A DNA stretch of 63,413 nucleotides from Nitrospinaceae bacterium (GTDB lineage: Bacteria > Nitrospinota > Nitrospinia > Nitrospinales > VA-1): positions 1 through 63,413 of the forward strand of contig JAJDBG010000018.1 of NCBI GenBank assembly GCA_029261475.1. Reading direction: 5' to 3'. The translations under genes and the position numbers were made by a program. The stretch's first letter is position 1; each line of letters starts with the position of its first letter. The notes below the pieces were generated by a model that saw only the letters and a program-made list of their open reading frames with translations, had not been told where the DNA came from and ran no database searches. Of this stretch, positions 21,325-56,468 are shown in pieces.

Positions 21325-22024
21325 GTAATCCTTATATTATCGACTATTGTTAAAAAAAATAATAAAGCGTTATGTTTTCCCCTAGTGGTTGTTGTGCAAC
21401 TACTACCTCAACGGTAAATAGTATTTAATAATAATCTGATTCTAAGTAAATCGTCAGGAAGTGTGAATTATAACCATTGTGTAACATTAACGCAAGTCAA
21501 AAAATGCTCAGTTTGTTTTGGACTTTGCATATTAGCCACTATCGTTAAACTTTCCCACTTTACCCATGTCCACATTGCCTAATCTGTTGGGCGAAGCCAC
21601 GGCCTCATGCATTGTCCTAGACGTTTCTGATTAGACTTGTTTCTTAACGTAACTATTCCCAAGTGTTAAAGCTCATAAAATCTCTATGGATATTTAATAA
21701 GGGTTTCACTTGATGTTAACTCCCATTTCTTCAACTATATAACCTGATCAGCTTTTAACCTTTTTCATTCCAGAAATACCTAATCATGAAAAAACTATCG
21801 CGGAGCGGTTTCGTTCAACATAGTATTGAATGGAACAAATTCTGCATTTCATGAAGAATTTTATTGTATGAAAAACCAAACCTCACGTAATGAATATTGG
21901 GCTAATATAGTCATATTTTTGTTTATCAAACAAACACGAGGTTTACATAAAAAGGAAATCTTAACGGACTTTATCGAAATTTGATTCTCTCTTAAAATGA
22001 TTTTCTTCGCTCAGAAACTGAATA

Positions 22025-23382: not shown

Positions 23383-23751
23383 TCACCCATCACGGCTATC
23401 CAGGATTTCATTGGCAGTTGGGAATAGAACAGGAAATTTCTTAAGGTCACTTCGGTGAATACGCACCAAGCCTCCGACTTTGTAGTAGCGCAGCCGTCTT
23501 TCGTACAGCCATTTCCTTACTGTTTTTGACGAGGTCTGGAAATGCACCGCTGCATCATCGACCGTGAGCCATTCCGTTTTCCCCACCTGGCTGTTTAGGT
23601 CATTCTGTTTTCTACTTGGACTATTCATTTCATTGCCAATACGCCATAGGTTGTGCACATCAGAACCCTTACCTCGACTTGATTTCTTGAGATTCATGAG
23701 TGTGATGCCTCGTTCGCTCGAACATTTCAGTTGTTCTACTTTACTGCTCAC
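23383..23751 (-). CDS. Excisionase-family (MerR-like) HTH DNA-binding protein; true start probably internal
   Basis: WLTVDDAAVHFQTSSKTVRKWLYERRLRYYKVGGLVRIHRSDL. The long form overlaps the relaxase 3-prime end by 11 nt. Internal Met codons (MNLKK, MNSPS) are alternative starts. Confidence 0.75.
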   Translation of the reverse strand: MSSKVEQLKCSSERGITLMNLKKSSRGKGSDVHNLWRIGNEMNSPSRKQNDLNSQVGKTEWLTVDDAAVHFQTSSKTVRKWLYERRLRYYKVGGLVRIHRSDLKKFPVLFPTANEILDSRDG

Positions 23752-27557: not shown

Positions 27558-29183
27558 CTAGAAGTCGAAGTCCGTGATAACGGTATCACCAGGGGTTGAA
27601 GCTGTTATGTCCTCTGGTGCTTTTTGTGTTGCTTTCGTCGAAGCTTCTGGTTGTTCATTCACAATTGTATTAGTCCGCATGACAAATCTTTTATCCGCAA
27701 CAAATGGTTTGGCGCGGTCGGGATAATGTTTGTACGGCACGCGGGACTCAGTCAGTGGATAACTCGACAATTTTATGTAGCATGAAAGATTTGGCAATGA
27801 CTGGATTTGGGAAGGCAGTAACAGTTTGTCAGTGATGCGCTGGTTGCGGTATGATTCCGTATCACGATAATCTCTGGTACCACTTGAGAACGTGCTCTCC
27901 ATGACTTCGGCTTCTTTCTCACCAAAAAGACGGCTAAAATATTCCGCGCTATCCGAATCGTTCATGCGAAAAATGATATAATTGTTGCACTGATTGATAA
28001 TGGAGTTTGACATGTCTTTGCCATAGATAGTATCAATCCTAGCTTTGTCCTGAATCCCTATCCAGATGGAACAACCTTTTGACCTGCCCAGGGTTAATAT
28101 ATCTGTGATTGCGTTTAAGGGGTGCAGTGACCCGAACTCATCGAGCATGATAAAAATTCTACGGTCGGGATTATCGCGCAGGGATAGTATCTCTTCAGCA
28201 AAGGCGTTAATGAAAAGGGTAAAAATGCCTCGCAAAGTCTCGCGCTGTTTTGCCACAGAATTGAGAAAAATAAAGCCGCCTTTGCTGTCGTCCCGCAACC
28301 ATTCGCGTAACGACAAGCTCTGCTTGTTCTCGCCTTTGACCATGTAGCGAAATATTTTAGCGTTCTGCATCAATGTTGATATAACACCTTGGGTCTGTAC
28401 GCTATCGTGATTCTCAATGGTTGCGGCGGCATTGCTGCCAACTTCTTTCAGCATCTTGTGTAAAGTTGGAATGGATTGAGTCAGAGATTTCCACAATGCA
28501 TCATTGTTGGCAATTTTATGCACAAAACAATAACGCAGGATACCCGATAAAACATCGCGTGCTGCCTGGCAGAAGAACTTCTCTTGTCCCCTGCCGCCAG
28601 GTATTACACTAGCAGCTACCGTATCAAAATCCGGCTCGCTATCGATAACGTCAAACACGTCAAAATACAAAGACCGCTCATCGAAAGGATTAAAGATAAA
28701 ATCCGTGTCGGGATTATAGAAGCGAGCAACGATTTCCCCTTGTTTGCCCCCATGAAACAGACATTTCGCTTTTCTTGCTCTGAGTTGGGTAATAGTGCCA
28801 CAGATAGCCTGGCTTTTACCGGTGCCGGTCGCACCGCCGATGAAGACGTGTGTGGTCTCGGATTTATAAGGCAGTATGATAGTTTCTGAAAGCGGTAGAC
28901 TGCCTGGCGGCAGTTTCTCAGCCAGTTCTTCTTCGGCAATCATGACTGAGCCCCGGCGGGTGCGCTCGGTAAACTGGCGTTTGCTGAGTTTGTGAAAAAA
29001 GAAAATGATTGCCGGCCAAAGCAAATAAACGGCAAAACTCAATTTGAAAATACTGCCGTGACGGAAAAGCAAGATAATTATCGCCACTTGTGCAATACAT
29101 AAACCTTTTAGAATGGCCAGGTGCATCTTGATATTTTTGCGTACCATATTAAAAGTTAGTTCAAAGGATTTATGGGTACTCAT
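27558..29183 (-). CDS. Type IV secretion coupling protein (TraD/VirD4-like ATPase)
   Basis: 541 aa. N-terminal TM helices, Walker A GGATGTGKSQAI, Walker B IFIMLDEFGSL. Confidence 0.8.
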   Translation of the reverse strand: MSTHKSFELTFNMVRKNIKMHLAILKGLCIAQVAIIILLFRHGSIFKLSFAVYLLWPAIIFFFHKLSKRQFTERTRRGSVMIAEEELAEKLPPGSLPLSETIILPYKSETTHVFIGGATGTGKSQAICGTITQLRARKAKCLFHGGKQGEIVARFYNPDTDFIFNPFDERSLYFDVFDVIDSEPDFDTVAASVIPGGRGQEKFFCQAARDVLSGILRYCFVHKIANNDALWKSLTQSIPTLHKMLKEVGSNAAATIENHDSVQTQGVISTLMQNAKIFRYMVKGENKQSLSLREWLRDDSKGGFIFLNSVAKQRETLRGIFTLFINAFAEEILSLRDNPDRRIFIMLDEFGSLHPLNAITDILTLGRSKGCSIWIGIQDKARIDTIYGKDMSNSIINQCNNYIIFRMNDSDSAEYFSRLFGEKEAEVMESTFSSGTRDYRDTESYRNQRITDKLLLPSQIQSLPNLSCYIKLSSYPLTESRVPYKHYPDRAKPFVADKRFVMRTNTIVNEQPEASTKATQKAPEDITASTPGDTVITDFDF

Positions 29184-37113: not shown

Positions 37114-38112
37114 TTAAGACCTGAAAATGCCAACCTGTGAATCCCCCACCACCGGCGTTTGCCAAATTGATTCAATTATTCTTTGCACCGGATTTTGCCC
37201 TAAATCCTCGTATCTAATAAACAAAAACATCCGCAGCCCGATTTTTTTCTCATCAACATCACGAGCCAATGCGATTAGATTTGCATGCTCTTTCAGGCTC
37301 ATCCCTTCAGTCACAAACAATACCCGCAGGTTTTGCGGTTCCTTGATGGCAGCATACTTGCGCTTTTTTACTTCAGCCCAGGCTGTCCATCTTTGTTGCT
37401 TATAAAAATAGTAATAGGCTTCCAGGCGATGCCGCAGACTTTTGTAGCGTGAGCGCAGACGTTTCGGGTCTTTGACAGCGCCTTTGCTGCGCTGTAATTC
37501 CAGGAAAAAATTCCGGGGTTGTAAGAAAGTATCGTGTTGGTCATCCGTTCCGGCAAGGGCAAATACCCAATCTGGGACAAGGTGGTACATGGTGTCGCGC
37601 AATGCTTCACCGCTATCGATGCTGATTTGCCTTTGCGCTCTGAAGCGGTCAACAAATTCTCTATCCTGAAATTCATACGGTACTATCAAACCTTGCTCTG
37701 TTGCAGCCCGTTTGATGATTGCCCGTATTTCGTTGAGCAGCACGGTATGCATCAGAAACGGGTGATAACCAGCCGCCAGGCGTTTGGCTTTCACTCGTTT
37801 TTTGGTGTGTTTTCGTAGTTCGGCAGCGGCTAATTCATCAAGGTAGTAGATGCAGGGTTGGCTGCCGCCGGTGTAGGTGTGTGGCGGATGCCAACGAGCC
37901 AGATAACCATGATGATAGAGCTTCTGTAAGCGATGCTGCAATGAATTTAGAGAACGGCCAAGTTGCCAGGAAATGCCCCTGGCGGTCAAATATTCGAACC
38001 GGTGTTGCGGTCCGAAAAGCTCAAGAATGGCAATATCTCGTTTTTCAAAACGTATTGGTGTGAGCTCATCCACAGGTGGTTTTTTATAGCGGGATTGTTT
38101 ATTGGCGGGCAT
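37114..38112 (-). CDS. Replication-relaxation family protein
   Basis: 332 aa. N-terminal winged-helix-like KRDIAILELFGPQHRFEYLTARGISWQLGRSLNSLQHRLQKLYHHGYLARW. Confidence 0.6.
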   Translation of the reverse strand: MPANKQSRYKKPPVDELTPIRFEKRDIAILELFGPQHRFEYLTARGISWQLGRSLNSLQHRLQKLYHHGYLARWHPPHTYTGGSQPCIYYLDELAAAELRKHTKKRVKAKRLAAGYHPFLMHTVLLNEIRAIIKRAATEQGLIVPYEFQDREFVDRFRAQRQISIDSGEALRDTMYHLVPDWVFALAGTDDQHDTFLQPRNFFLELQRSKGAVKDPKRLRSRYKSLRHRLEAYYYFYKQQRWTAWAEVKKRKYAAIKEPQNLRVLFVTEGMSLKEHANLIALARDVDEKKIGLRMFLFIRYEDLGQNPVQRIIESIWQTPVVGDSQVGIFRS

Positions 38113-38672: not shown

Positions 38673-39116
38673 ATGGATTATCTGAAACAGCTAAAAATCG
38701 AATATATTAAAACTGACATTCCGAACCCAATCCGCGGTCAGGTCGAAAAACCTGAAGACATTTACGTATTATTTAAGGATATGGAACGGTCCGATAAGGA
38801 GAAGGTCGTTGGTGTTTATTTGGATGCCCGCATGCTTATCAACAGCTTTGAGGTCGTTAGCATTGGTTCCAACAACCTTGCTTTAGTTGCGCCTAAAGAG
38901 GTCTGCAAAGGCGCTATCCTCACCAACTCTCCGAATTTCATAGTGCTGCATAACCATCCGTCCGGCGACCCGGAGCCAAGTCCCAGAGATAGGAGGGTCA
39001 TAATTCAGTTGCAATCCGCTGCAAAAGCATTGGATTTGCGCTTGATAGACTTCATCATCATTGGTGATGGTCGTTATTGGAGTTACAAAATCGGTGAGTA
39101 TTTTGCGAAAGATTGA
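38673..39116 (+). CDS. RadC-like JAB/MPN-domain protein
   Basis: 147 aa. JAMM motif context IVLHNHPSGDPEPSPRDRRV. Confidence 0.85.
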   Translation: MDYLKQLKIEYIKTDIPNPIRGQVEKPEDIYVLFKDMERSDKEKVVGVYLDARMLINSFEVVSIGSNNLALVAPKEVCKGAILTNSPNFIVLHNHPSGDPEPSPRDRRVIIQLQSAAKALDLRLIDFIIIGDGRYWSYKIGEYFAKD

Positions 39117-39174: not shown

Positions 39175-41247
39175 TCACATCCGTAAATCATCCAGAAATT
39201 CCGATGCCGGTTGTACGCCGGAAACCAGCAAACGATCACGTGCTCTAGTACAGGCGACATAAAGCAGATGACGCTCGGTGCTATAGACCTCCTCAAGATC
39301 AGCATCGTCGGCCACGGTTTCGATGCGTGATTGCAGTGGGATGACTTCATCATCACAGGCTATGACGGCGACTGCGCGAAATTCCAGGCCTTTGGCTAAG
39401 TGCATGGTGCTGAGGGATACATGACCGTGTGTCGTCTCAACACTGTTATCAAGCTGTTTATAATGTACACCTGCCGCTTTTAGTGCGGAGATAGCACGCG
39501 GAAACTCTGCCTCCGAACGAACAAAAATAGCCACTTCTTCTGGTTGGATACCATCAGCGATAATTTCTGTAAGCCATTTACTGACGGCTTCAATTTCTTT
39601 TTGTGCAGACTCCCACACAATTATGTTTGGTTGCGGGCCGTTAAATACTGAAATCGCACCGCGTCGATCTTCGGTGTTGCCATCTACATCGGAAATCTCC
39701 GGCCCCAACAACTTGTCGGCTTTCTTTCTAATTTGGTGTGACGTTCTGTAGTTAATTCGCAAAATCCTTGAACGCCCACGAACGTCTACACCGAGAGCTT
39801 TCCAGGAAAAAGGCTGTTGAAAGATACGTTGCCCCAAGTCGCCTGAAAAGAAAAGACTGTCCGGATGTTCTCCGTCCATTACCGCCAGAAACCGCAATTG
39901 CGCCACACTAATATCTTGAGCCTCATCTATAACAACAAAGTCGAAAGGTCTGTTTTGGAAATCCGTAAACTTACTTCCCAATTGACCAAATATTTGCGCA
40001 TGGGTAAGAAGATTACGGCCTGAGAGTTCAGAACGCAACCTTTCAAAGATAATCCAAAGCGTCTTGCGTTGATTTTCCGGTAGTCGTGTTTTTCTTCCTA
40101 ACCTTAAAACATCCCGGTACGCTTCCCAACTATCCAGTTGCCAGGCATCGACAACTTGTTGCCACTCCGTCATCAGGAAGTTCAGCGAGAACTTGTTATC
40201 CTCGACTGTTCCTGCAATTTCATGGAGAATCTGCTTGGTGCTTTCTTCAGTGGCAATATTCGGACGACCAAAATGTAATTCGTAAAGTCTGCGGCCAATA
40301 CCGTTTATTGTATACACCTCGATTCGTTCAGCCAGGCGGGGTGTGTTGCTTATTAATCGTCGCAATTTTGTGTGTAGCACATTGGTCAATGTGTCCGAAA
40401 AAGTAGTTAGCAATATTCTGGCGTCGAGATGTTTGCGGGCAAGAAAAACCGAGCGGTGTAGGGCCACGATGGTTTTGCCAGTTCCAGCTGAACCGGCTAC
40501 ACGCGCCGCACCATTGTAATCCTGTTCAACCAATTCCCGTTGTGCGGGATGCAAAAACACGGTCCATTTTTCCCATGGAAATTCCAGGGCACGTTCGAGT
40601 TCTTCGATGTCTTTCATAACCCGGAATCGGCGCTGTGCATCGGGGTGCTCGAACGGATCTTCGGTATCCACCAGTGGTGCTGCAATTGATGGCGTCGTGC
40701 CAGTAGCTAAATCGAGTAGTGCTTCTGCGGCCTCGGCCGGGAGATGTTCTGCTAACTCGAGGACAGTATCTTCATTTGCTTTTCGGACATCTTCCAGCCA
40801 CTCGATTGGTACACCGTAACTCAGGAGTTCACTGTCTGACAGGTCGGCAAATAACAGAGGCTTTTCAGGAACGATTTCTTCTGCTTCAATATATTTTGGT
40901 GTAATTATTTCTTTGAAGGTTTCGCGGATTTGTACCAATTGAGCGGCGCCGGTTTTTGGATGTATTTCCAGCTTACGACGTTCAGCCCACTGATAAGCCT
41001 GGTCATGATGGTCGACATAACACAGAAGCAGACTCGAATCAGTTTTGTGCACAATCAGGCGGATGTCACGGCTCACTCGTACCGACCAGAAGTTAGTGTC
41101 CCTGGCTTTATCCAACTTATGAAACTGCATGCCTGGATTAGCAGGATTCATTTGTAAATCAAACGCAGTTGTTTTGACCGCTTTCTGCTCATCATTGGTG
41201 AGTTTGGCGAGGCTATCGGTAAAGGTATCTGAAATTCTAAATTCCAT
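39175..41247 (-). CDS. UvrD/PcrA-like SF1 helicase with N-terminal RelE/ParE/HigB-fold domain
   Basis: 690 aa. N-terminus QFHKLDKARDTNFWSVRVSRDIRLIVHKTDSSLLLCYVDHHDQAY. Helicase motifs GSAGTGKT, VVIDEAQD, YVACTRARDRLLVSG. Confidence 0.8.
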   Translation of the reverse strand: MEFRISDTFTDSLAKLTNDEQKAVKTTAFDLQMNPANPGMQFHKLDKARDTNFWSVRVSRDIRLIVHKTDSSLLLCYVDHHDQAYQWAERRKLEIHPKTGAAQLVQIRETFKEIITPKYIEAEEIVPEKPLLFADLSDSELLSYGVPIEWLEDVRKANEDTVLELAEHLPAEAAEALLDLATGTTPSIAAPLVDTEDPFEHPDAQRRFRVMKDIEELERALEFPWEKWTVFLHPAQRELVEQDYNGAARVAGSAGTGKTIVALHRSVFLARKHLDARILLTTFSDTLTNVLHTKLRRLISNTPRLAERIEVYTINGIGRRLYELHFGRPNIATEESTKQILHEIAGTVEDNKFSLNFLMTEWQQVVDAWQLDSWEAYRDVLRLGRKTRLPENQRKTLWIIFERLRSELSGRNLLTHAQIFGQLGSKFTDFQNRPFDFVVIDEAQDISVAQLRFLAVMDGEHPDSLFFSGDLGQRIFQQPFSWKALGVDVRGRSRILRINYRTSHQIRKKADKLLGPEISDVDGNTEDRRGAISVFNGPQPNIIVWESAQKEIEAVSKWLTEIIADGIQPEEVAIFVRSEAEFPRAISALKAAGVHYKQLDNSVETTHGHVSLSTMHLAKGLEFRAVAVIACDDEVIPLQSRIETVADDADLEEVYSTERHLLYVACTRARDRLLVSGVQPASEFLDDLRM

Positions 41248-42103: not shown

Positions 42104-43123
42104 TTAGTAAGCATGAATATGGAAATCCATAAGCTTATTATCATCTATTATCAGAAATATATCAGGCCATGATTGTTTCATGACTAAGAAAGGCACCGGC
42201 ACATAGTCCCATCTCTCTGCATTTTCACCTTTGCCAATCTTTGGTTTCGAAACAATCCGTGGTTCTCCTAAAATATCCATGATTTCAGACACCGACATTC
42301 CTACTCGTAGAGATTTTTCTTCAATACATTTATCAATGGCTTTGTGCATTTTGTAATGCTCTGCATATCTTCTCCCAGTCTTGATTAGGACGTAGATTAT
42401 AAATGAGAAATATAAGCAACAAAGAGCTATGAATGATGCAAGCTGAAAATTAATAATCGGTTTCCCGATCTCCATTGACTGTAAAAAAGATAGACCTTGT
42501 ATAATAACTCTTGCCTCATTCGAATCTTCAATCGACGAGGGCTCAAGTGCCCACCAATTATTCAAGCCTGGAAATAGTGTATTTGATGATGAATTGTCTG
42601 CAATAAATTCTTTCCCAGAATCAGCAATCAGATTGTAAGTTATGGAGGAAGGCTCTTTGGTAAAAATGAGCATTTGGAAAACGCTAGTAGGTCTCATCTT
42701 TTCAAGAGAGACAGTTATACTTCTGTCAGAAGATTTTTCAACTACGTGCGGTTCAGAATCTTTAATAACTTCGGATGAAATGATGGACGCTGTAGTTTGT
42801 ACTAACAAACTTATATCAGTTGCAGAGCCACCATATATATGTTCGATTTTAATGCCAATCGGGTACTTATTCAGCCCTTCAAACGCAAAGAGGGGAAGGT
42901 CAATCTCGTCCAAAGATATCGACGTCACTCGTAAATTTGGTATTGACCTCAACTCTTTCTCACGCTCTTGAAAAACTCTAATTTTCTCATTCAGTCTTTC
43001 AATTTTCGTATCCACTCTGCTTTGATAAGCATAATATGCACTTGCAAAACCAATAATAAGCGACAGGAATGAAATCACAATCGTTAGTATGCGACTAACT
43101 CTCGGCTTAGATCGATTACTCAC
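42104..43123 (-). CDS. Hypothetical bitopic membrane protein with BamE/SmpA-OmlA-like C-terminal segment
   Basis: 339 aa. N-terminal TM, coiled coil, second TM FIALCCLYFSFIIYVLI, then LRVGMSVSEIMDILGEP. Confidence 0.55.
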   Translation of the reverse strand: MSNRSKPRVSRILTIVISFLSLIIGFASAYYAYQSRVDTKIERLNEKIRVFQEREKELRSIPNLRVTSISLDEIDLPLFAFEGLNKYPIGIKIEHIYGGSATDISLLVQTTASIISSEVIKDSEPHVVEKSSDRSITVSLEKMRPTSVFQMLIFTKEPSSITYNLIADSGKEFIADNSSSNTLFPGLNNWWALEPSSIEDSNEARVIIQGLSFLQSMEIGKPIINFQLASFIALCCLYFSFIIYVLIKTGRRYAEHYKMHKAIDKCIEEKSLRVGMSVSEIMDILGEPRIVSKPKIGKGENAERWDYVPVPFLVMKQSWPDIFLIIDDNKLMDFHIHAY

Positions 43124-43247: not shown

Positions 43248-46127
43248 TTACACCTTAAACACCTTCATCACCTCATCACCAAGATGATTAATTACCTTTA
43301 CCGCAATTCGCCCGGACTCCGGTTTATCGAACGGACGCGAGGTGTCGCTGTGCAGGGTTTCCCAGGCTTCCTGGTTGATTTCAGCTTTGAGGGTGGTTTT
43401 GAGGGATTTGTACGGGTCGCCAGCACCGAGGAAATAAGCGTGGCGCACGAAAAAACTTTCCTCATTATAATCGGTATCGATGAACCAGCAGGCGATGCCA
43501 TCCGCGTCGTCGCTGCGGACTTCGCCGGTTTGGGGATGGAAAACATCCACACCGTTGACCTTCACCTGAATCTGACCATCTTCGGCATCAAGGATGTCAA
43601 TGTCCGGTTCACCGAAGATGACGAACAGGTTGCCTTTGCCGGTGTTTTTGAGGTCATCGGCCATGTGTAGGTCGGCGTTCATGCGCGCTTTCAAAACCGG
43701 GATGCGGCCGAGTTTCTCGAATTCCGACGAGTGCGCATCGTAGTTGAAAGCGCAGGCAATCAAGGCATCGAAGCCAGCGTCCCCAGCCTCGCGGGCAGCA
43801 GCAACCAGATCGGGACGCGATACTGTGCCGAACTCCGGGCCAATGAAAATACCGAGGCGTTTCTCTTTACCGCTTCCCTCCTCGCTCTCGTCGTAGCGGC
43901 CTTCGGCGCAGACGTAATGTCCAGGCCATGGCGTGATGGACGTGAACTGAATTCGGTCTTCCTTGTGCGCTTGCTGTACGCCGGAGGTCTTGAGGTTTTC
44001 CAGGATGATTTCAGCAAAATCGCGTGTTTTGGCGAAACCGTCCTGATGGTCTGAGATTTTGTCGATGGGTTCATCATTTTCGTTTACAGTCAGCACACGA
44101 TGAGGCGACAGGCTCTCCACCGTGAACGGGCCGGCGACGTGAACTTTTTTGTTATCGGTGTACGGTTTGTCATACAGGTATTCGTAATCTGCTTTGGCGG
44201 CAATGGAAGCATCGATTTCTTTTTGGCGGGCAATTCGGGCTTCCCAGAACGTATCGAACGGCTCGAGGGCAGTCTGCGGCCAGTCATCCGGGAAATCTCT
44301 TGGTACTTCCCAATCCAGCAAAGCGCCTACCGATACTTCTTCGCCGGAGAGCAGTTCAACCGTAGCATTTTCCGGTGCGGTGAAATCAACTTTTTTACCC
44401 TGGCGACCACCGGTAGCCACTTTGAAGGGTTTACCATGCCCACACAGTGCTGCGTTCAGCTCGGTGAGTGCGCCTTGTATTTTGGGCTGCCACTTTTCCC
44501 AAACGACATCAATTTCAGCGTTATTAGCGATGGACTTGAGGGTGATATGCGGTACGCGCTCATACACAAAACCTTGCCGAATGTTACCATAAGTTGGCGC
44601 TGTGGATGGCGCAGTCAGGGTAATTTCAGCTTCTTTTTGCTGGCCTTCCTTGCTATCGGCTAAGATATAATATGGGTAGCGTGCGCCCATAATCCGTGCG
44701 CGGGCAAGAGCCAAAGCGACCCGTGAAGTGTCAATGGTGATCCAACGCCGACCCCATTGCTCGCAAACATAGCCCGTTGTGCCGGAGCCGCAAGTGGGAT
44801 CGAGAATGAGGTCGCCCGGATCGGTGGTCATGAGAACGCAGCGTTTCACAAGTTCAGTGGCTGATTGTACTACATACACTTTTGGGTCAGTGCGACTTTG
44901 AATACCACCAATATCTGTCCAAATATTGGAAGCCGGAATTACTCGGAAATCATCAAGTTTTCTTATATAACGCGGTCGCGTTTTTGATGGAACTATTCGC
45001 CCAGCCATATCAACTCGATACAGTTCTTCGACTCTTACCGTCCAATGCCTGGTTGGGGGGGGAGAGTATTTTCTGCCCTGAAAGGTAAACGGTCGAACGC
45101 TATTATCAGCTTGTGCACCCTCAGAAGTGATTTCGCTATCAACGACGTATACATCAGGCAAAATACAATACCCTTTTAGAGAAGAATATGATGAGGCAGG
45201 TTTGTACTTTGTCCCACCTGATTCTCCAACGGTTTTTTCAGAGTACAACTGTCTATATTTAATCTGATTGGGGTTCTTGGCATACCACAAAATAAAATCA
45301 TTTATATTAGAAAGCAGTGAGCTTGTAAAACCAGATGTCTTACTTATTGAAATCTCACTTACAAAGTTATCTTCTCCAAACACTTCATCCATCAACGCAC
45401 GGACTCGATGCACATTCTCATCTCCAATCTGCACAAAAATAGAGCCGGACTCGGTCAACAAATCACGCGCCACGGTCAGGCGGTCGCGTAGGTAAGTAAG
45501 GTAGGAATGAATACCATCACGCCAAGTATCGCGGAAAGCCTTCACCTGCTCCGGTTCGCGTGTGATATGATCGGCCTTGCCGTCCGTCACATCACGGCTG
45601 GTAGTAGACCACTGAAAATTGGAGTTGAATTTAATGCCATAAGGAGGGTCAAGATAAATGCACTGCACTTTGCCGCGCAAGCCTTCACGTTCAGCCAGCG
45701 AAGCCATTACTTGCAGGCTGTCGCCCAGAATCATGCGGTTGCTCCAATTCGCGTCGTGCTGGTAAAACTCGGTTTTGGCAGCTTCGTTGGGCAGGCCATT
45801 AAAATCCCCAAATAAGTCGGCTTGTTGCATCTGACTTTCTTCTTGCTCGCGAGTTTGCTGTAGTAGATCATCAATCAGCACTTTCGGGTGAACCTTCTCC
45901 TGGATATAGAGCGGCGGTGCCGGTACAACCAGGTCAGACCAGTCCTGCTCATCCTTACCCCGCCAAACAAGCTGCGGATCGAGGTCACGGTTACGGCGTT
46001 CATACGCCACCTGGACTGGGCTTTTTTCCTCATCCCGCATAACCGACTCGAATTCAGCCGTAGGGATATTTTTGCGCTTAGATTCCTCGTGCTTTATAGA
46101 TACGATGGTTTTCTTTTGTTTCGCCAT
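43248..46127 (-). CDS. mod: Type III-like R-M DNA methyltransferase (Mod; N6_N4 beta-class)
   Basis: 959 aa. Motif IV IYLDPPYG precedes motif I DPTCGSGTTG, with a ~250-aa variable region between them. Long C-terminal extension. Confidence 0.85.
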   Translation of the reverse strand: MAKQKKTIVSIKHEESKRKNIPTAEFESVMRDEEKSPVQVAYERRNRDLDPQLVWRGKDEQDWSDLVVPAPPLYIQEKVHPKVLIDDLLQQTREQEESQMQQADLFGDFNGLPNEAAKTEFYQHDANWSNRMILGDSLQVMASLAEREGLRGKVQCIYLDPPYGIKFNSNFQWSTTSRDVTDGKADHITREPEQVKAFRDTWRDGIHSYLTYLRDRLTVARDLLTESGSIFVQIGDENVHRVRALMDEVFGEDNFVSEISISKTSGFTSSLLSNINDFILWYAKNPNQIKYRQLYSEKTVGESGGTKYKPASSYSSLKGYCILPDVYVVDSEITSEGAQADNSVRPFTFQGRKYSPPPTRHWTVRVEELYRVDMAGRIVPSKTRPRYIRKLDDFRVIPASNIWTDIGGIQSRTDPKVYVVQSATELVKRCVLMTTDPGDLILDPTCGSGTTGYVCEQWGRRWITIDTSRVALALARARIMGARYPYYILADSKEGQQKEAEITLTAPSTAPTYGNIRQGFVYERVPHITLKSIANNAEIDVVWEKWQPKIQGALTELNAALCGHGKPFKVATGGRQGKKVDFTAPENATVELLSGEEVSVGALLDWEVPRDFPDDWPQTALEPFDTFWEARIARQKEIDASIAAKADYEYLYDKPYTDNKKVHVAGPFTVESLSPHRVLTVNENDEPIDKISDHQDGFAKTRDFAEIILENLKTSGVQQAHKEDRIQFTSITPWPGHYVCAEGRYDESEEGSGKEKRLGIFIGPEFGTVSRPDLVAAAREAGDAGFDALIACAFNYDAHSSEFEKLGRIPVLKARMNADLHMADDLKNTGKGNLFVIFGEPDIDILDAEDGQIQVKVNGVDVFHPQTGEVRSDDADGIACWFIDTDYNEESFFVRHAYFLGAGDPYKSLKTTLKAEINQEAWETLHSDTSRPFDKPESGRIAVKVINHLGDEVMKVFKV

Positions 46128-46146
46128 TTTATGCTTTAATTTGTTT

Positions 46147-47391
46147 TTATTTATTTTGCGACTTAACAGTTAAATTTTGTTTCTTCCTGCTCATTTGCTT
46201 TTCAAATTTCTTCTTGAGAGCGTCCATTATTGCGACCTTTGCTTCACCTGCCCATTCAGCAAAATCTCCCTGATATAAGAAAACATTGCTATGCTTAAAA
46301 GTATCATGCTCCAAATAAGGAAAAACCTTACTCAACTGTATTTTCTGTTTTTCCAAGTCCATTTGGTCTATGTAGAATACAAACTTATATGCAGCATCAC
46401 CGAGATCCTCAGCATACTGTTTAATAAGAAACCTTAACATGGCATCTTCTTCTGGCATACTATATCCTACAATAACAAGCAAATCGCTTTCTCGTAGTAA
46501 CCTCACTGCTTTGGGAAAAATGGATGAAAAATAAGGTTCATTATACTCCTGTTCCCTTGTGGGTAAAATGATCTTAGGCGGGTTTTTACTTATTGTATTT
46601 GATTCCTTGGCCAAATAATCCAATTCATACCCTCCATTAACAGGGTATATCTCAAATCCACCATTAATTTTGATTAAATTTCGAACTATGAAATGATCAT
46701 GTATTGACTCTTGAAAGTCAAGACCATGTATCTTAAGAGGAGTAAAGCCTCTATATATATAATTGAAAATGCTATCATCATTATAAATAGCATTATCAAG
46801 AATCGTTTCTAAGGTAAAATCATAGTTCGTCGTAACAAAGTGAAATCTCACACCTGAAGGTATTCCAGTGCTTGCATCTTCATGTTCTGACAATGACTGA
46901 AAAAAATTCAAAATATTACTTTGTAATTGGGATACGTCTTGTCCTATTGCAAATTTCTGTTCGTTTGGATCAAAATAGTTAATAGGCATCAAATCGCTAA
47001 ATCGTTTGTAGATTATTGAAATCAAATCATTCAAAATAATCGAAATATTGTTGACATCAATATAGCGGGTTCTTAAAACCGGGTAGCGTTTCTGCACAGA
47101 TAAATTGTAAACCAAGTCCTTTAAATGAGAATCATCTAATTGCATTCCTATTGGGTAACCATGAGAAGATAGAAAAGTATCGATTTTTTCATTGTAGGTT
47201 CTTATATCTCTTTTTTCAATCTGGAATAATTCGCTTCCTTTAGGATACCTTTGATCCCAAGATTTTGAAAAACCTGCCCCAGCCAAAAAAACTACATTGA
47301 AGAGTGGTGCCATCTGAGTACCCTGGGAACTCTTGGCCGCGATTATTTTAGCGAAACTATCTACTGACTGATCTTTTGATACATTAATCAT
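46147..47391 (-). CDS. SIR2-family (SIR2_2-type) protein, putative NAD+-consuming effector
   Basis: 414 aa. Ordered signature FLAGAGFS, FVTTNYD, LKIHG, LLVIVGYSMPEED. The ATG overlaps the last 8 nt of res. Visibly AT-rich relative to both neighbours. Confidence 0.8.
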   Translation of the reverse strand: MINVSKDQSVDSFAKIIAAKSSQGTQMAPLFNVVFLAGAGFSKSWDQRYPKGSELFQIEKRDIRTYNEKIDTFLSSHGYPIGMQLDDSHLKDLVYNLSVQKRYPVLRTRYIDVNNISIILNDLISIIYKRFSDLMPINYFDPNEQKFAIGQDVSQLQSNILNFFQSLSEHEDASTGIPSGVRFHFVTTNYDFTLETILDNAIYNDDSIFNYIYRGFTPLKIHGLDFQESIHDHFIVRNLIKINGGFEIYPVNGGYELDYLAKESNTISKNPPKIILPTREQEYNEPYFSSIFPKAVRLLRESDLLVIVGYSMPEEDAMLRFLIKQYAEDLGDAAYKFVFYIDQMDLEKQKIQLSKVFPYLEHDTFKHSNVFLYQGDFAEWAGEAKVAIMDALKKKFEKQMSRKKQNLTVKSQNK

Positions 47392-50300
47392 TTTCTAATT
47401 TACTGCAAAACTCTATGAATTCTTGCTCAATTTCAAATACTTTGGTGAACTCAGCAAACGCCCAACGGCCATATTTGCCAAGATTGTTGATGCCGGGTAT
47501 CCAGTAGGTTTCCATAGTCGTCTTTTTGTCTTTGGCATCTTCACGTCGGTAGCCTTTGATTTCAACAATCAAATGCAGCGGGTCGTCGCGGCCGTCATCA
47601 ACCAACACAATGAAGTCGGGAATGTAGGTTCGGGTTTCCGAACCGTAACGGTAAGGTACTTCCAGGCCGAGGTTATGATTTTTGACATAGGCTTTAACCT
47701 GCGGATGGGATTCCACCACGCGGCAGAATTCGGCCTCCCAGTCACTATCCAGGATAACCCAATTGATATGGCATTTGCGCGCATCGGCCTGCCAGCGGTT
47801 GGTTTTGGATGTGGTGAAGTTAACGTGCATTGTGGAACTAACCGGATTGTATGAATCGAGAACCGCCTTGATGGTGTGTTCATCCGCCATCGAGCTTGTT
47901 ATGCCAGCGGTAATTCGCTCGCAGGCCATGTCGGCGAGCATCTTGTATTTTAGCTGTGCCGGATACGTGCCGCCTTTGCAGACCAGATAATTTTCCAGCC
48001 AGTTCCTGGCAATGCGTTTGAGCTGGCCAAAAAGCTGCAAGCGCGGGTCGCCATCCGGATCGCGCCACTTGGTTAAAACCAGATGCGAGGTCAGTTCATA
48101 AAGCACTTGCGACGGTCTGACATCGCCGGTGTGTACGAGATTAAGGTCAACTTTCTCGCCAATAATACCAGCATTTTGTGTTTCGGTAGCGCCCACCAAA
48201 TCAGGCGTAAGTTCCAGAACAGAGTCATCCGTAAAGTTTGCGGTCAGGCGGTCTTCCGCCAGTTCGACCCGGTAACCCGCAACACGCGGGAACCTGATTT
48301 CGAGGTGGTCGCGTTCAGGGCGCACCGCCTTAACCTGAACGGTCACACGCGGCGGCTGTGGACCAACCACCACCGGCTTGGCCGTAAAATCGAATGGAAT
48401 ACCTAGAACATCGGCGTATTCAACATTAAATAAATTTTCTTCATTGAGGGCATAAGATTGGCGGCGCAAGGCACGACCAATCACCTGTTCGCACAGAAGC
48501 TGTGTGCCAAAGGCGCGAATACCCAAAATGTGCGTTACAGTATTGGCATCCCAACCTTCGGTCAACATTGAAACCGATACCACACAGCGAATCGAATCGC
48601 CCAACCTGCCAGGCTTACCGACTGTATTCATAACCTCGCGCAGTAAATCCTGGTCGGTGATATTCTCGGCTTGTCGCTGGTCGCCGGTACGTTCAACAAT
48701 TTCGCGGCGAAAGCGTTCAATCTCGTCGCTGGCCATTGTGCGAAAATTCTTGTCTAGGGCGTCACCTGATTCAAGTTGAACACTGTCAATCAGTAGTGTA
48801 CGTGGACGCCCCAGTGGGTCACCGTGTTCATTGAAATTCCTGAACAATGGCAAGCGGCCTTGCTCAAGCTGACTGGAGCCGTCCTTGCTCACCCTCCGGA
48901 AGCCAGAGATATAGTCATAAACCAACTTAGAAGTGGAGGTGTTATTACAAACCACAATGAAGCATGGCGAAACCGGTATATCCGCTTGCGCCCAGCATTC
49001 GTAGGTTTTTTCATAATGGCCGTAAAGCGCATCTAGTGCAGTTTGCAGTTGCGGCGGTAGGTCAAACGGATTGAGTTCAGTGTCTTTTCCGCGTTTCTTC
49101 TTGGGCATTTTGTCGCGGATATGCTTCCAGAGATCCCGATACATTGGCACTTCAGCACCTGGGATATTATCAGCAACCGGGACACGCGGTAGTTTGACTA
49201 TGCCGCATTCGATAGCATCCATCAAAGAGAAGTCACTCATTGTCCATGGGAACAGCGTGCCTTCGGCATAACCGGAACCGCTCAAAAAGAAAGGAGTTGC
49301 GGAAAGGTCAATTACGCGTGCAACACCAAGCTTGCGTTTAACTATTTCGAGTCCGGAAATCCAGAGACGCGCAGCCTCGCGGTTTTTTTCGGCTTCTTTT
49401 TTATCGTCGCCTTTCAGGTCGCCCTCTTCATCTTCACCAGGCTTTTCACGATAGCAGTGATGCGCTTCATCGTTGATGACCAGAATGTTCTTCATGCCCA
49501 TGAGTTCTTTCATAGAGCGTTGCAACATTTGGCCTTCGGTTTCGAGTGTATTCAATGGATCGCCACGACCTTGGAGGAGTGAACGTCCGCCCTTTGAAAG
49601 CTCCATTTTCTCGCGCAGCTTAAAGGCGTGGAAATTGGTGATGACGATTTTCGTGCGTTCCAAATCGGGCAGCATATCGTTTGGCACGAGTTCGCGGCTT
49701 TGGTAATAGCTATCGGGATCGTTCGGTTGTAGCACCCGCAAGCGGTCTTTGATGGTCAAGCCCGGCGTTACCACCAGAAAGCCACGCGTGAATCGGCTGC
49801 TTGTAGGGCGACGTACAGCATTGATGGTCTGCCAGGCAATTAACATAGCCATGACTGTGGTTTTGCCAGCACCGGTGGCTAACTTAAGCGCCAGCCGCAT
49901 GAGTTCGGGATTGGCTGAATTGTTGGCATCTTTCAGATAATCAAGAAACGCCTGTCCGATTTTTCCTGCTCTAGGCGCGACTTCAGTGAGCCAGATAGCG
50001 GTCTCTACGGCTTCCACCTGACAGAAGAATGGCCGGATGTCATTGAATTGATGGTGCCGCCAGTGTTGCAGCAGACGGGCTGTCTCCGGTGTCACTTGCC
50101 AATCACCAGAATTAGGTAGGCTGCGCCATTGGTCAATTTGCTTACGCAGTTCGTTGATCACGGGTGCAGTATCGTACTGTTGTTTTTCTGAGGAAAGGCC
50201 TTTACCTTCGTCCAGGACTATTTCTTGTTGTTGTGCTGAACCTTTGCGTTTTCTCGGTTTTGGAATAGGTGTGATGAACTCGACCCAACGCCTCCGGTTT

Positions 50301-50404
50301 ACGATCTCCTGAGTAGGTTGGCCTTCTTCATCAAGTTCCCAGTGGCTTGCGGGATACTCGTAGGGTGAGTTAAGAATTGGTTTTTCGAAAAAGTTACTTT
50401 CCAA
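47384..50404 (-). CDS. res: Type III-like restriction enzyme Res subunit (SF2 helicase + C-terminal PD-(D/E)xK-like nuclease)
   Basis: 1006 aa. N-terminus FFEKPILNSPYEYPASHWELDEEGQPT, Walker A LATGAGKTTVMA, DEAH box VINDEAHHC, C-terminal YIPDFIVLVDD...IVEIKG. Confidence 0.85.
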   Translation of the reverse strand: MESNFFEKPILNSPYEYPASHWELDEEGQPTQEIVNRRRWVEFITPIPKPRKRKGSAQQQEIVLDEGKGLSSEKQQYDTAPVINELRKQIDQWRSLPNSGDWQVTPETARLLQHWRHHQFNDIRPFFCQVEAVETAIWLTEVAPRAGKIGQAFLDYLKDANNSANPELMRLALKLATGAGKTTVMAMLIAWQTINAVRRPTSSRFTRGFLVVTPGLTIKDRLRVLQPNDPDSYYQSRELVPNDMLPDLERTKIVITNFHAFKLREKMELSKGGRSLLQGRGDPLNTLETEGQMLQRSMKELMGMKNILVINDEAHHCYREKPGEDEEGDLKGDDKKEAEKNREAARLWISGLEIVKRKLGVARVIDLSATPFFLSGSGYAEGTLFPWTMSDFSLMDAIECGIVKLPRVPVADNIPGAEVPMYRDLWKHIRDKMPKKKRGKDTELNPFDLPPQLQTALDALYGHYEKTYECWAQADIPVSPCFIVVCNNTSTSKLVYDYISGFRRVSKDGSSQLEQGRLPLFRNFNEHGDPLGRPRTLLIDSVQLESGDALDKNFRTMASDEIERFRREIVERTGDQRQAENITDQDLLREVMNTVGKPGRLGDSIRCVVSVSMLTEGWDANTVTHILGIRAFGTQLLCEQVIGRALRRQSYALNEENLFNVEYADVLGIPFDFTAKPVVVGPQPPRVTVQVKAVRPERDHLEIRFPRVAGYRVELAEDRLTANFTDDSVLELTPDLVGATETQNAGIIGEKVDLNLVHTGDVRPSQVLYELTSHLVLTKWRDPDGDPRLQLFGQLKRIARNWLENYLVCKGGTYPAQLKYKMLADMACERITAGITSSMADEHTIKAVLDSYNPVSSTMHVNFTTSKTNRWQADARKCHINWVILDSDWEAEFCRVVESHPQVKAYVKNHNLGLEVPYRYGSETRTYIPDFIVLVDDGRDDPLHLIVEIKGYRREDAKDKKTTMETYWIPGINNLGKYGRWAFAEFTKVFEIEQEFIEFCSKLEND

Positions 50405-52078: not shown

Positions 52079-52867
52079 TCAGTTGGCTTGGTTTGTTTGG
52101 GCAGGCTTTTCAAAGACCGGCAAGTATTCATGGGCGATGAGCAAGAAATTGAGTTTCTGACTTGTGTTTTGCCATTTCTCGGTCATCTTGCAGTTATGTT
52201 GCTCTTTGATGATGATTTCTTTCAGAATGAACCCGGCACGCAGGTAGACGCGCATCAGCATAAAGCCCAATGGCACGACGCGTTTGTTTTTGCGGGTGTC
52301 GCCAATCAGGAAGGCACAACATCTTCCTGGTTTGAGCACCCGAAAATTCTCATTGGCGACGAAGTGCATTTCCTGCAAGAATTCATCAACCGCCAGGTGG
52401 GATAAGTCCCCTGCGGTGTCTTTCGAATACTGGATGATGTTAGCATACGGTGGATGCGTACAGATGAGGTCGATTGTGTTATCCTTAATTTTGGATAAAT
52501 CTCTGGCATCGCCTTGGGTGACTTGTGGTTCGTGGTAGCGGATTTCTTTGGGTAGTTTAAAGTTCAGATTTTGGCGGGTGAGTTTGATGGCGTTGTCATT
52601 GATGTCAATGGCGATGCTTTTCCTGCCCAGCAGTTTAGCTTCGATGGCGGTGGTACCGCTGCCGCAAAAACAATCCAAAATAGTTTCACCGCTTTTGGTG
52701 TATTTAAAAATGAGATTGCGCGGCACATACGGGCTCCAGTTGCCGCGATATTTGCCGGTTTGGTCATGGGTTGCCCAAATGCCTCTATCCGGAAAGCTCC
52801 AAACCGTTGTGGCTTCCGGTTGAAAGTCTTTCGGTTCCAGGGTTTCCGGTACTTCTCTTTTATTCAT
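52079..52867 (-). CDS. Orphan SAM-dependent (N6-adenine/N4-cytosine type) methyltransferase
   Basis: 262 aa. Motif I LDCFCGSGTTAIEA followed by the PPY motif LICTHPPYANI. No cognate nuclease is adjacent. Confidence 0.75.
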   Translation of the reverse strand: MNKREVPETLEPKDFQPEATTVWSFPDRGIWATHDQTGKYRGNWSPYVPRNLIFKYTKSGETILDCFCGSGTTAIEAKLLGRKSIAIDINDNAIKLTRQNLNFKLPKEIRYHEPQVTQGDARDLSKIKDNTIDLICTHPPYANIIQYSKDTAGDLSHLAVDEFLQEMHFVANENFRVLKPGRCCAFLIGDTRKNKRVVPLGFMLMRVYLRAGFILKEIIIKEQHNCKMTEKWQNTSQKLNFLLIAHEYLPVFEKPAQTNQAN

Positions 52868-53723: not shown

Positions 53724-54134
53724 TTAGTCATCGGTCTCCGGCGGCTCATTGTTTTCTTGCGGAACATCAGCGTCTGGTGCCGGTGCGTTCTCGGCAATAT
53801 CGTTTTTGGTTTCCAGCATGGTCAGTCTTTCCCCTATCACTTCGGTCACCATACGCTGGTTGCCATTGTTGTCTTGCCAGGTACGGGTGCGCAGGCTGCC
53901 TTCGACATAGATTTTGCTGCCTTTCTTGAGATGCTCAGCAGCTATCTCAGCCAGTCGACGCCAGAGTACTACTCGGTGCCATTCAGTATGTTGCTGCTTA
54001 TCTTTATGGATTTCATTGGTGGCAATAGCCAGGGTGAGCACGTTGATGCTGTTCGGCGTTTGTTTGAGTTGCGGGTCAGCGCCCAGATTCCCTATCAGGG
54101 TGACGCGGTTCACAGAACCTTTTCCTATAGCCAT
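53724..54134 (-). CDS. ssb: Single-stranded DNA-binding protein
   Basis: 136 aa. OB-fold N-terminus VNRVTLIGNLGADPQLKQTPNS...HTEWHRVVLWRRLAE, with an acidic Pro-rich tail. Confidence 0.9.
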   Translation of the reverse strand: MAIGKGSVNRVTLIGNLGADPQLKQTPNSINVLTLAIATNEIHKDKQQHTEWHRVVLWRRLAEIAAEHLKKGSKIYVEGSLRTRTWQDNNGNQRMVTEVIGERLTMLETKNDIAENAPAPDADVPQENNEPPETDD

Positions 54135-55187: not shown

Positions 55188-56468
55188 TTATTGCAAAAAT
55201 TGGCTGATTTTGGCTTCGACCTGAGCACGCGGCCGACCATAGCGTTGACGTGACGCCTGTAACAGTTGCTCTTTAGTAATGGCTAAATCCAAAACAGGTG
55301 ATGTGGGCGGTGGTATCGTCACGCCTTGATAAGGTTTTTGCACGGTACCATTATGCATGAGTTTAGTGTAGATTTCGTAGGGATTGAGGTTGACCAGGTT
55401 GGTGATTGGCCAATCCTGGCCAAATTCTTTTCCGAAGGTTTCCGCATCTTCAGCGCCGAGCCGGAACAGCACCAGGGTACCAATGTTGGCCAGTACGGAA
55501 TTGCGAATATTGTCGGTGAGCTGGTCAAGATACTGATGCGCCAGGATAAAGCTTAAGCGATATTTCCTGATTTCCGAAAGAGCACCGGCAAAGGCGTCGG
55601 TGGTGAAATTTTGAAATTCATCAATATAGAGATAGAAGTCGCGGCGCTGGTGTTCGGGCTGGTTAGCTCTGGCCATGGCTGCTTGCTGCAGACCAGAGAC
55701 GATGAAACAGCCCAACAGGTTGGCGGCTTCTTCACCGAGCCTGCCTTTGGCCAGGTTGACGATGAGGATGCTTTTTTGGTTGATGATATTGTCAAAATGA
55801 ATGGTGCTCGAGCTTTGGCCGAGGATATTGCGCAACGGCCGGTTGCTCAGGTAAGCGCCGATTTTGTTTTGCACCGGCGAGATGACTTCCGTGCGCATGC
55901 GTTCGGGAAAGGCAGCAAACTCTTTTTCCCAGTAGTGCCGCACAAACGGGTCATTGATATTGTTTACCAGACGCAGCCGATATTTTTCGTCGGTCAGAAG
56001 TCTGGGGATGGTGAGCAAAGTGCTACCCGGATTTTCCAACAAAGCCAAGAGTGTATTGCGTAAGAGATAGGCCATGCGCGGTCCCCACGAATCGTGCCAG
56101 ATTTTTTGAAAAATCGATAGCAGATTTTCAGCCACCAGGTGGCGTTCGTTTTCTTTGACTTGTCCCAACAGATTCAAGGCCACTGGGTAGTCCAAATCCG
56201 TCGGATTGATATAAACCAGATGCTTGCGCCTGCTTTGCGGGATAAACGGCAGCACCGCCTCGGCCAGGTCGCCATGCGGGTCGATGAGACCGACACCGCG
56301 ACCGGCCTGGATGTCCTGCACCAACTTGTTGAGTAAGAGGCTCGATTTACCGGTACCGGTTCTGCCGGTAGTCAGGAAATGAAAACGCCGGTCGGATTGG
56401 GCGATTCCGATTTTCTGATTGTTATTCGCCCAGTCCTGGGCAAAGTAGGTGAATTCCTGCGCCGACAT
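55188..56468 (-). CDS. TraD/VirD4-like or HerA/FtsK-superfamily P-loop ATPase (no TM region)
   Basis: 426 aa. Walker A TGRTGTGKSSLL, Walker B FYLYIDEFQNF. Confidence 0.65.
   Translation of the reverse strand: MSAQEFTYFAQDWANNNQKIGIAQSDRRFHFLTTGRTGTGKSSLLLNKLVQDIQAGRGVGLIDPHGDLAEAVLPFIPQSRRKHLVYINPTDLDYPVALNLLGQVKENERHLVAENLLSIFQKIWHDSWGPRMAYLLRNTLLALLENPGSTLLTIPRLLTDEKYRLRLVNNINDPFVRHYWEKEFAAFPERMRTEVISPVQNKIGAYLSNRPLRNILGQSSSTIHFDNIINQKSILIVNLAKGRLGEEAANLLGCFIVSGLQQAAMARANQPEHQRRDFYLYIDEFQNFTTDAFAGALSEIRKYRLSFILAHQYLDQLTDNIRNSVLANIGTLVLFRLGAEDAETFGKEFGQDWPITNLVNLNPYEIYTKLMHNGTVQKPYQGVTIPPPTSPVLDLAITKEQLLQASRQRYGRPRAQVEAKISQFLQ

Follow-up and report, generated by a model that had tools for sequence, protein, structure and literature searches.

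Autonomous defence genes are known to be embedded in multi-gene defence operons, and examples have been described for Hma, BREX, DISARM and Type I restriction-modification (R-M) operons (bioRxiv 10.1101/2024.01.29.577857). TgvAB, which is embedded in a Type I R-M operon, works when it is expressed alone (PMC11411939). The locus analysed here lies in a stretch of 63,413 nucleotides (nt) from a Nitrospinaceae bacterium (contig JAJDBG010000018.1, assembly GCA_029261475.1), and this whole stretch is referred to as the window. A gene for a protein of the SIR2 fold, called the SIR2-like gene below, was located in the window between the restriction gene (res) and the modification gene (mod) of a Type III-like R-M operon. 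In EcoP15I, a classical Type III system, the gene order is mod then res, and Type III cleavage requires a pair of asymmetric sites in inverse orientation. The locus adds one more example to the embedding of defence genes that is already known, and it is not a new three-part system of restriction and NAD+ depletion. It is probably a two-gene Type III-like R-M operon of the BPTD_3080 family, with a foreign and autonomous single-gene SIR2-like module at its res–mod junction. No paper mentioning BPTD_3080 or a res–SIR2–mod arrangement was found in the literature.

The operon and its res–mod junction

The list of open reading frames (ORFs) and their translations gave a trio of genes on the minus strand, all in one direction, in the order res, SIR2-like gene and mod. 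The genes and their junctions are as follows (lengths of proteins in amino acids, aa).

47384–50404, minus strand: res, 1006 aa, TTG start; Type III-like restriction subunit of the BPTD_3080 family.
46147–47391, minus strand: SIR2-like cargo gene, 414 aa; an embedded gene for a stand-alone SIR2-fold protein.
43248–46127, minus strand: mod, 959 aa; beta-class N6-adenine DNA methyltransferase.
47384–47391, minus strand: overlap of 8 nt between res and the SIR2-like gene, ATGATTAA, with the start codon of the cargo within the end of res; read from the sequence.
46128–46146, minus strand: spacer of 19 nt between the SIR2-like stop and the mod ATG; read from the sequence.

An earlier sequence-only reading of the window had placed three co-directional genes at these coordinates with the same overlap and spacer, and it was borne out by the ORFs and by direct reading of the sequence. 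The junction between res and the SIR2-like gene reads GAAAATGATTAATG. The SIR2-like ATG (47391–47389) falls within the final 8 nt of res, of which the TAA occupies 47386–47384. Homologues of res start with MESNFFEK at the position equivalent to the TTG start. The second in-frame Met of the SIR2-like gene is residue 26, and according to the alignment, a start at this residue would cost the conserved N-terminal helix. Hence, the ATG at 47391 is the start of the SIR2-like gene, and the overlap is genuine.

No terminator-like site was found on the minus strand from the start of res to the end of mod, and the promoter-like matches in the operon were at chance level (16 versus 13.6 expected), by which an internal terminator or promoter splitting the genes was rejected. 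An independent Logan assembly (SRR15505515) was 100% identical over 3245 nt covering both junctions, and a chimera of the one assembly was rejected on this ground. The guanine-cytosine (GC) content of the SIR2-like gene was 34.1% (31% at third codon positions), whereas that of res was 50.2% and that of mod was 50.4%. This drop was the largest in the surveyed operons. The DNA directly flanking the operon had a GC content of 33–37%, which is near the 34.1% of the SIR2-like gene. The suggested GC content of the host is approximately 34–36%, close to that of the SIR2-like gene and unlike that of res and mod.

The family of each R-M subunit was assigned with profile searches. Res matched the NCBIfam model NF046055, "BPTD_3080 family restriction endonuclease", with 1369 bits, and residues 6–997 covered positions 1–967 of the 970 in the profile. 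It also matched Pfam ResIII (5.4e-9) and RE_endonuc (4.5e-6, residues 882–960). A superfamily 2 (SF2) helicase/ATPase domain with LATGAGKT and NDEAHH was followed by a C-terminal PD-(D/E)xK endonuclease. Mod matched Pfam N6_N4_Mtase (1.3e-33, residues 154–473) and the PADLOC model MTase_III PDLC03632 (1329 bits). The DPPY motif (motif IV) of Mod preceded its FxGxG-type DPTCGSGTTG motif (motif I), which is the beta-class order of Type III Mods. The SF2 motifs and the PD-(D/E)xK domain of Res and the beta-class Mod are those of a Type III system. The gene order is not: res preceded mod at this locus and in each of the 67 related loci in which both genes were present. Moreover, the classical Type III models matched Res weakly (PADLOC REase_III with 29 bits, NCBIfam PRK15483 with 18.5 bits), and Res is placed by NCBIfam in the separate family NF046055. 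The operon is labelled "Type III-like" because of these weak matches and of the order res then mod.

The C-terminal extension of Mod (about 480 aa) had no family match in the Pfam scan. This C-terminal half (residues ~480–959, window positions 43248–44700) is kept in all related operons in spite of the missing Pfam match, and the tblastn matches of these operons extend to Mod residue 959. Homologues of Res with 67–79% identity to the protein of the window were present in Nitrospirota, Acidobacteriota, Bacteroidota, Planctomycetota, Actinomycetota and Proteobacteria (e.g., L093, 8001–13864), and the GC content of the Res-homologue genes and hosts ranged from 0.42 to 0.66. The comparison of sequences points to unusually strong protein conservation and extensive horizontal transfer of the Res family.

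The res–mod junction was surveyed in 80 Res-homologue loci (L084–L163) with the above Res identities of 67–79%. Both genes were present in 67 loci, and the junction was measurable in 64. The gap between the two genes was 120 nt or less in 24 operons, 121–400 nt in 5 and more than 400 nt in 35. In the bare form of the junction, res and mod are approximately 2 nt apart (TAAnnATG). The 35 operons with more than 400 nt held one to three unrelated co-oriented genes, which were packed tightly. The following cargo was identified.

DUF4062 with HATPase_c_4: six loci.
Bro-N, matching PDC-S13: six loci within the PADLOC scan; L111 has one more, separate Bro-N gene.
SoFic: four loci.
YhcG/DUF1016, matching PDC-S02: four loci.
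PIN: four loci.
ORF6N, matching PDC-S05: two loci.
SF1 helicase of 1265 aa, matching PDC-S68: two loci.
AAA_21 with DUF4276, matching HEC-01.
TIR_2-domain protein of 248 aa (L120, 7065–7811) in a Deltaproteobacteria metagenome-assembled genome: a member of another NAD+-consuming effector family.
NYN, and 23S_rRNA_IVP.
IS200-like Y1 transposase (L105): non-defence cargo.
PDC-S54-like gene: weak match (E 9e-11).

The res–mod junction of the BPTD_3080 family is a recurrent cargo hotspot, and most of its identifiable cargo consists of known embedded defence candidates. One of the two proposals of the sequence-only reading, namely that an independent cassette occupies a permissive slot, is thus supported by the unrelated cargo at the junction in 35 of the 64 related operons. 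No second SIR2-like occupant of the junction was found in the surveyed related operons. Furthermore, unrelated cargo overlapped the res stop by 4 nt in the ATGA manner in L089, L091, L095, L101, L111 and L136, and a spacer of 2 nt preceded the mod ATG in L084, L089 and L095. Tight coupling is a property of the slot and is not specific to the SIR2-like gene, because unrelated cargo is packed equally tightly. The overlap and the short spacer had been taken as an argument for the functional coupling of res and the SIR2-like gene, and this argument does not hold for the same reason.

In L085 (8001–11477) and L100 (8001–11450), the res frame continues without a stop into approximately 150 additional aa, which had no Pfam match, and a gene of 202–209 aa with a weak PDC-S54 match follows the extended res. 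The extension may be a fusion of a cargo domain to the C-terminus of Res. No empty-slot counterpart nearly identical to this R-M operon was found in the genome collection, in which the best Res identity was 79%.

The SIR2-like protein and its homologues

The SIR2-like family has at least 343 members with identities of 37–48% in Cyanobacteria, Bacteroidota, Planctomycetota, Chloroflexota, Proteobacteria and others. It is rare and patchy across phyla, with 109 confirmed matches among 185,579 species genomes. The linkage of these homologues to R-M genes was evaluated via tblastn with the Res and Mod of the window against the flanks of the homologue loci. The flanks requested were 10 kb for 80 genome loci and 8 kb for the other three, and those of the metagenome loci were up to 6 kb. 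A Res or Mod homologue was found near the SIR2-like homologue in none of the 83 genome loci, none of the 80 metagenome loci and neither of the two loci of the closest relative, P0002, which lie on short contigs. The other proposal of the sequence-only reading, a three-component system that couples restriction to NAD+ depletion, is not supported: that reading had itself named a lack of recurrent linkage to res and mod as a refutation, and this outcome was obtained. A conserved three-component res–SIR2–mod architecture was rejected because Res or Mod was near the SIR2-like homologue in 0 of 165 loci.

The neighbours within 5 kb on each side were clustered for the 83 genome loci, and no conserved partner gene (HerA, TIR, prokaryotic Argonaute or other) was found beyond the genus level. 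The immediate neighbours were mostly housekeeping genes, such as those for XdhC, MobA-like, SRP54 and symporter proteins. A handful of PADLOC matches was obtained among the 133 immediate neighbours, with no recurrent R-M model. The SIR2-like family is therefore a solitary and patchily distributed gene.

In Salinicola (L058–L076, e.g., L060, 10001–12338), the SIR2-like gene is syntenic across approximately 12 species, mostly with XdhC-family and MobA-like genes downstream. Shorter and more distant relatives of approximately 360 aa (28–32% identity) were present on IMG/VR viral contigs (L247–L253, e.g., L247, 5815–6981); they keep GAGFSK, TTNYD and YKLNGGFEV and are without the loop around His222. 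One further relative on a viral contig is a 77-residue fragment with 52% identity. A phage origin of the SIR2-like cargo was rejected because there was no PHROG match and the viral contigs hold only distant relatives.

The SIR2-like protein passed the Pfam SIR2_2 cut-off marginally (26.6 bits, cut-off 24.5), and SIR2_2 was its sole Pfam domain. With ResIII for Res and N6_N4_Mtase for Mod, all three families proposed for the trio were recovered. The PADLOC SIR2 model matched at 2e-6. No NCBIfam or PHROG match was obtained, and PADLOC-DB v2.0.0 has no dedicated model for the protein, including the PDC and HEC models. An AlphaFold2 model was built from 120 homologues, with a mean predicted local distance difference test score (pLDDT) of 93.1 and a predicted template modelling score (pTM) of 0.92. 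The best match of the model among PDB structures in Foldseek was the SIR2 protein of the Escherichia coli SIR2-HerA system (8uae_F, E 1.2e-8, template modelling score 0.54–0.57), followed by Sir2Tm, EcThsA (8wc0_B), KomBC and SIRT6. The Foldseek probability was 1.0 to Sir2Tm, SIRT6, ThsA and the SIR2 of SIR2-HerA. The predicted structure thus clearly has a genuine SIR2 fold. It ends in one long helix (residues 377–413) and has a helical insert at residues 52–168. At the sequence level, no match to solved structures was obtained with the 120-sequence profile, even at E ≤ 10, and hhalign against an approximate Sir2Tm query aligned only the VGYS/LGSS strand with negligible probability.

The alignment and the model place the motifs of the protein at GAGFS (38–42), TTNYD (187–191), KINGGFE (241–247) and VGYSMPEED (308–316). 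GAGFS, the glycine-rich GxGxS loop that follows strand 1 of the Rossmann-type NAD-binding fold in SIR2 proteins, was invariant in the 120 sequences and is preceded by strand 31–37 in the model. In TTNYD, the Asn/Asp motif of SIR2 proteins, T188, N189 and Y190 were invariant and D191 was conserved in at least 90% of the sequences. Across the family, GAGFSK, TNY(D), K-I/L-N-G-G-F-E and GYS..D were invariant or almost so. In sirtuins, the catalytic His follows strand 3; in Sir2Tm, it is H116, and the Asn/Asp motif reads TQNID. No invariant or 90%-conserved His was found in the 120-sequence alignment, so that the catalytic His of sirtuins has no conserved counterpart in the family. His222, in LKIHG, is confined to the protein of the window and its closest relative P0002 (67% identity), and the loop that holds it is deleted in the relatives at 28–32% identity, which keep YKLNGGFEV. 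The complete SIR2_2 signature that the sequence-only reading had described therefore stands for GAGFS, TTNYD and VGYSxPEED, which are conserved, and falls for LKIHG.

In the model, strand 237–241 is directly followed by Asn243 of the invariant N243-G-G-F-E. By topology, Asn243 would thus stand where sirtuins carry their catalytic His behind strand 3, and the residue-level equivalence is inferred from model topology, spacing and family conservation rather than from a superposition. Asn189 and Asn243 are 54 residues apart, and this distance resembles the 61 residues of the N226...H287 dyad of the Staphylococcus aureus Sir2-HerA protein, in which the mutation of H287 abolished NADase activity (PMC11514289). 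Hence, NAD+ binding by the SIR2-like protein is likely, and NAD+ hydrolysis is not assured. The predicted cleavage is uncertain because the catalytic His, essential in the closest solved relative, is absent from the SIR2-like family.

Element context and readings of the locus

The R-M operon is part of the cargo of an integrated element of the conjugative or mobilisable kind. The other genes of the element, listed below, lie within positions 22000–58000 of the window, and no tRNA gene was found in the window as a whole.

23741–26431: TrwC relaxase.
27558–29183: type IV coupling protein (T4CP).
37114–38112: Replic_Relax.
38673–39116: RadC.
39175–41247: UvrD-like helicase of 690 aa; best PADLOC match NERD+UvrD (1.5e-29), with an N-terminal region of approximately 230 aa without assignment.
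42104–43123: protein of 339 aa without a family match, just downstream of mod.
52079–52867: orphan Type II-like methyltransferase.
53724–54134: single-stranded DNA-binding protein (SSB).
55188–56468: second T4CP-like gene.

The 339-aa protein and the UvrD-like helicase downstream of mod could also belong to the defence cargo of the element. Elsewhere in the window, a 1564-aa protein with leucine-rich repeats and immunoglobulin domains (6453–11147) has a C-terminal Por_Secre_tail domain, which is a sorting domain of the type IX secretion system and suggests a host among the Bacteroidota.

In the proposed mechanism, the integrated conjugative element resides in a host of low GC content and contains a res–mod operon, and the SIR2-like module would have lodged at the junction of the two genes. 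Inserts at the junction are co-oriented and free of terminators, probably because host protection against res depends on the downstream mod, which has to stay transcribed and translated. The SIR2-like protein would be expected to act alone because its family is solitary in many phyla, and the trigger would be sensed in the protein, for example through the helical insert at residues 52–168, or through its oligomeric state. The joint expression of this gene and the R-M operon would then provide layered and mechanistically independent protection. Most likely, the protein would function in the manner of other defence SIR2 proteins, as an abortive-infection effector that binds or consumes NAD+. The invariant Asn in place of the sirtuin catalytic His would make its chemistry non-canonical. 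By the logic of "guilt-by-embedding", the SIR2-like family may be regarded as a defence candidate.

Several observations weigh against an autonomous defence module. The missing linkage elsewhere would still be compatible with an interaction with Res or Mod that is specific to this locus. The survey covered 64 operons at 67–79% Res identity and offered no near-identical empty slot by which the insertion could be dated. The His that is essential in SaSir2-HerA (H287) is absent from the SIR2-like family. The synteny beside housekeeping genes in Salinicola resembles that of a resident gene more than that of a mobile defence gene, and few of the 133 immediate neighbours matched PADLOC models; the defence role of the family is a prediction.

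The last three of these points also agree with a reading in which the SIR2-like gene is a passenger without a defence role, which we regard as unlikely. The gene would then encode a His-less protein that binds or modifies NAD(P) or ADP-ribose in a housekeeping or regulatory role, and it would be tolerated in a recombination-prone slot since the expression of mod is not blocked. The stand-alone homologues among housekeeping genes, the scarcity of defence neighbours, the family without an invariant His and the lack of a dedicated PADLOC, NCBIfam or PHROG model are all consistent with such a passenger, and the slot also takes non-defence cargo, as with the transposase in L105. However, most of the identifiable cargo of the slot is defence-associated, and a rare and patchy family with distant relatives on viral contigs and with defence SIR2 proteins as its nearest structural relatives argues against a passenger.

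An interaction specific to this locus would underlie a PrrC-like guardian, which is improbable. The Res/Mod complex would keep the SIR2-like protein inactive, and a phage anti-restriction protein that inhibits the enzyme, or the stalling of translocating Res on foreign DNA, would unleash NAD+ depletion or the ADP-ribosylation of a target. The embedded and co-oriented gene overlapping the res stop and the TIR-domain gene of L120, which places another NAD+-consuming effector type in the same slot, would suit this arrangement, and there is a precedent in PrrC, whose gene lies within the EcoprrI Type IC locus and whose activator is T4 Stp (PMC12707154). PrrC is almost exclusively embedded in R-M loci (bioRxiv 10.1101/2024.01.29.577857), whereas no Res or Mod was linked to the SIR2-like gene in the 165 homologue loci. 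Moreover, unrelated cargo shows equally tight packing, and the 16-point difference in GC content speaks against the SIR2-like gene having co-evolved with res and mod. It is very improbable that termination-reinitiation at the res stop yields stoichiometric amounts of the SIR2-like protein, that Res/Mod keeps this protein inactive and that a phage anti-restriction factor frees it, as a PrrC-like back-up, for NAD+ use or the ADP-ribosylation of a target, with the BPTD_3080 slot as a docking site for second-line effectors.

Comparison with described defence systems

The two subunits of the operon resemble those of the classical Type III R-M systems EcoP1I and EcoP15I, in which Res also has an SF2 helicase and a PD-(D/E)xK domain and Mod is also a beta-class N6_N4 methyltransferase. 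The present locus differs in its order of res then mod and in the approximately 480 additional aa at the C-terminus of its Mod.

Among the SIR2 systems, a SIR2_2-type domain is shared with Thoeris ThsA and DSR1/DSR2, and ThsA (8wc0_B) was a significant structural match. However, the SIR2-like protein has no SLOG domain, there is no ThsB partner or TIR gene in its operon, and the His is absent. DSR proteins are larger than 1000 aa; the SIR2-like protein has 414 aa, is without their large C-terminal sensor domains and also lacks the His. The SIR2 protein of SIR2-HerA (Nezha) is the best structural match, with a similar size (383–398 aa) and a Rossmann core with a helical cap in common. The identity between the two is 14–16%, and H287 of SaSir2 is replaced by the invariant Asn243 in the SIR2-like family. 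No HerA partner was found in the window or in the 83 homologue loci; the lone DUF87 match in the window was weak and lay in the T4CP-like gene 8 kb away. If the SIR2-like protein is active, its invariant Asn in place of the catalytic His would be informative on the chemistry of SIR2 NADases.

PrrC of the EcoprrI Type IC locus is similar in that a gene for an abortive-infection-type effector lies inside an R-M operon. It is almost always embedded in R-M loci and, as a rare case, is functionally gated by the R-M enzyme, whereas the SIR2-like family stands alone in 165 of 165 other loci, so that the nearly exclusive embedding typical of PrrC was not found, and the chemistry of the two proteins differs. 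TgvAB, a GmrSD-like system of Vibrio cholerae VPI-2, is an autonomous module in an R-M operon and shows the behaviour that is predicted for the SIR2-like gene. TgvAB differs in being a Type IV restriction module of two genes with a Type I host operon, and the present locus has a single SIR2-fold gene in a Type III-like operon.

The closest agreement is with the "guilt-by-embedding" candidates (HEC and PDC) of Payne et al. 2024. Shared with that work are a foreign gene that sits within an R-M operon in the orientation of its neighbours and a slot that varies across relatives, and the cargo of the sister operons includes the same families, namely SoFic, HEC-01, PDC-S02, S05, S13 and S68, with a weak match to S54. 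The SIR2-like gene has both properties of an embedded gene, as it is nested in a multi-gene defence system and has non-embedded homologues. The host operon is a Type III-like system of the BPTD_3080 family, a class outside the survey of that study. Defence-gene embedding is thereby extended from Hma, BREX, DISARM and Type I R-M operons to a widespread and highly conserved Type III-like R-M family. The occupation of one precise junction in more than half of the sampled BPTD_3080 operons makes this junction a compact target for the search for new defence genes, and the uncatalogued, broadly distributed SIR2-fold family provides a testable single-gene defence candidate. Compared with the embedded genes described to date, the Type III-like class of the host operon and the SIR2-like family of the cargo are both new.

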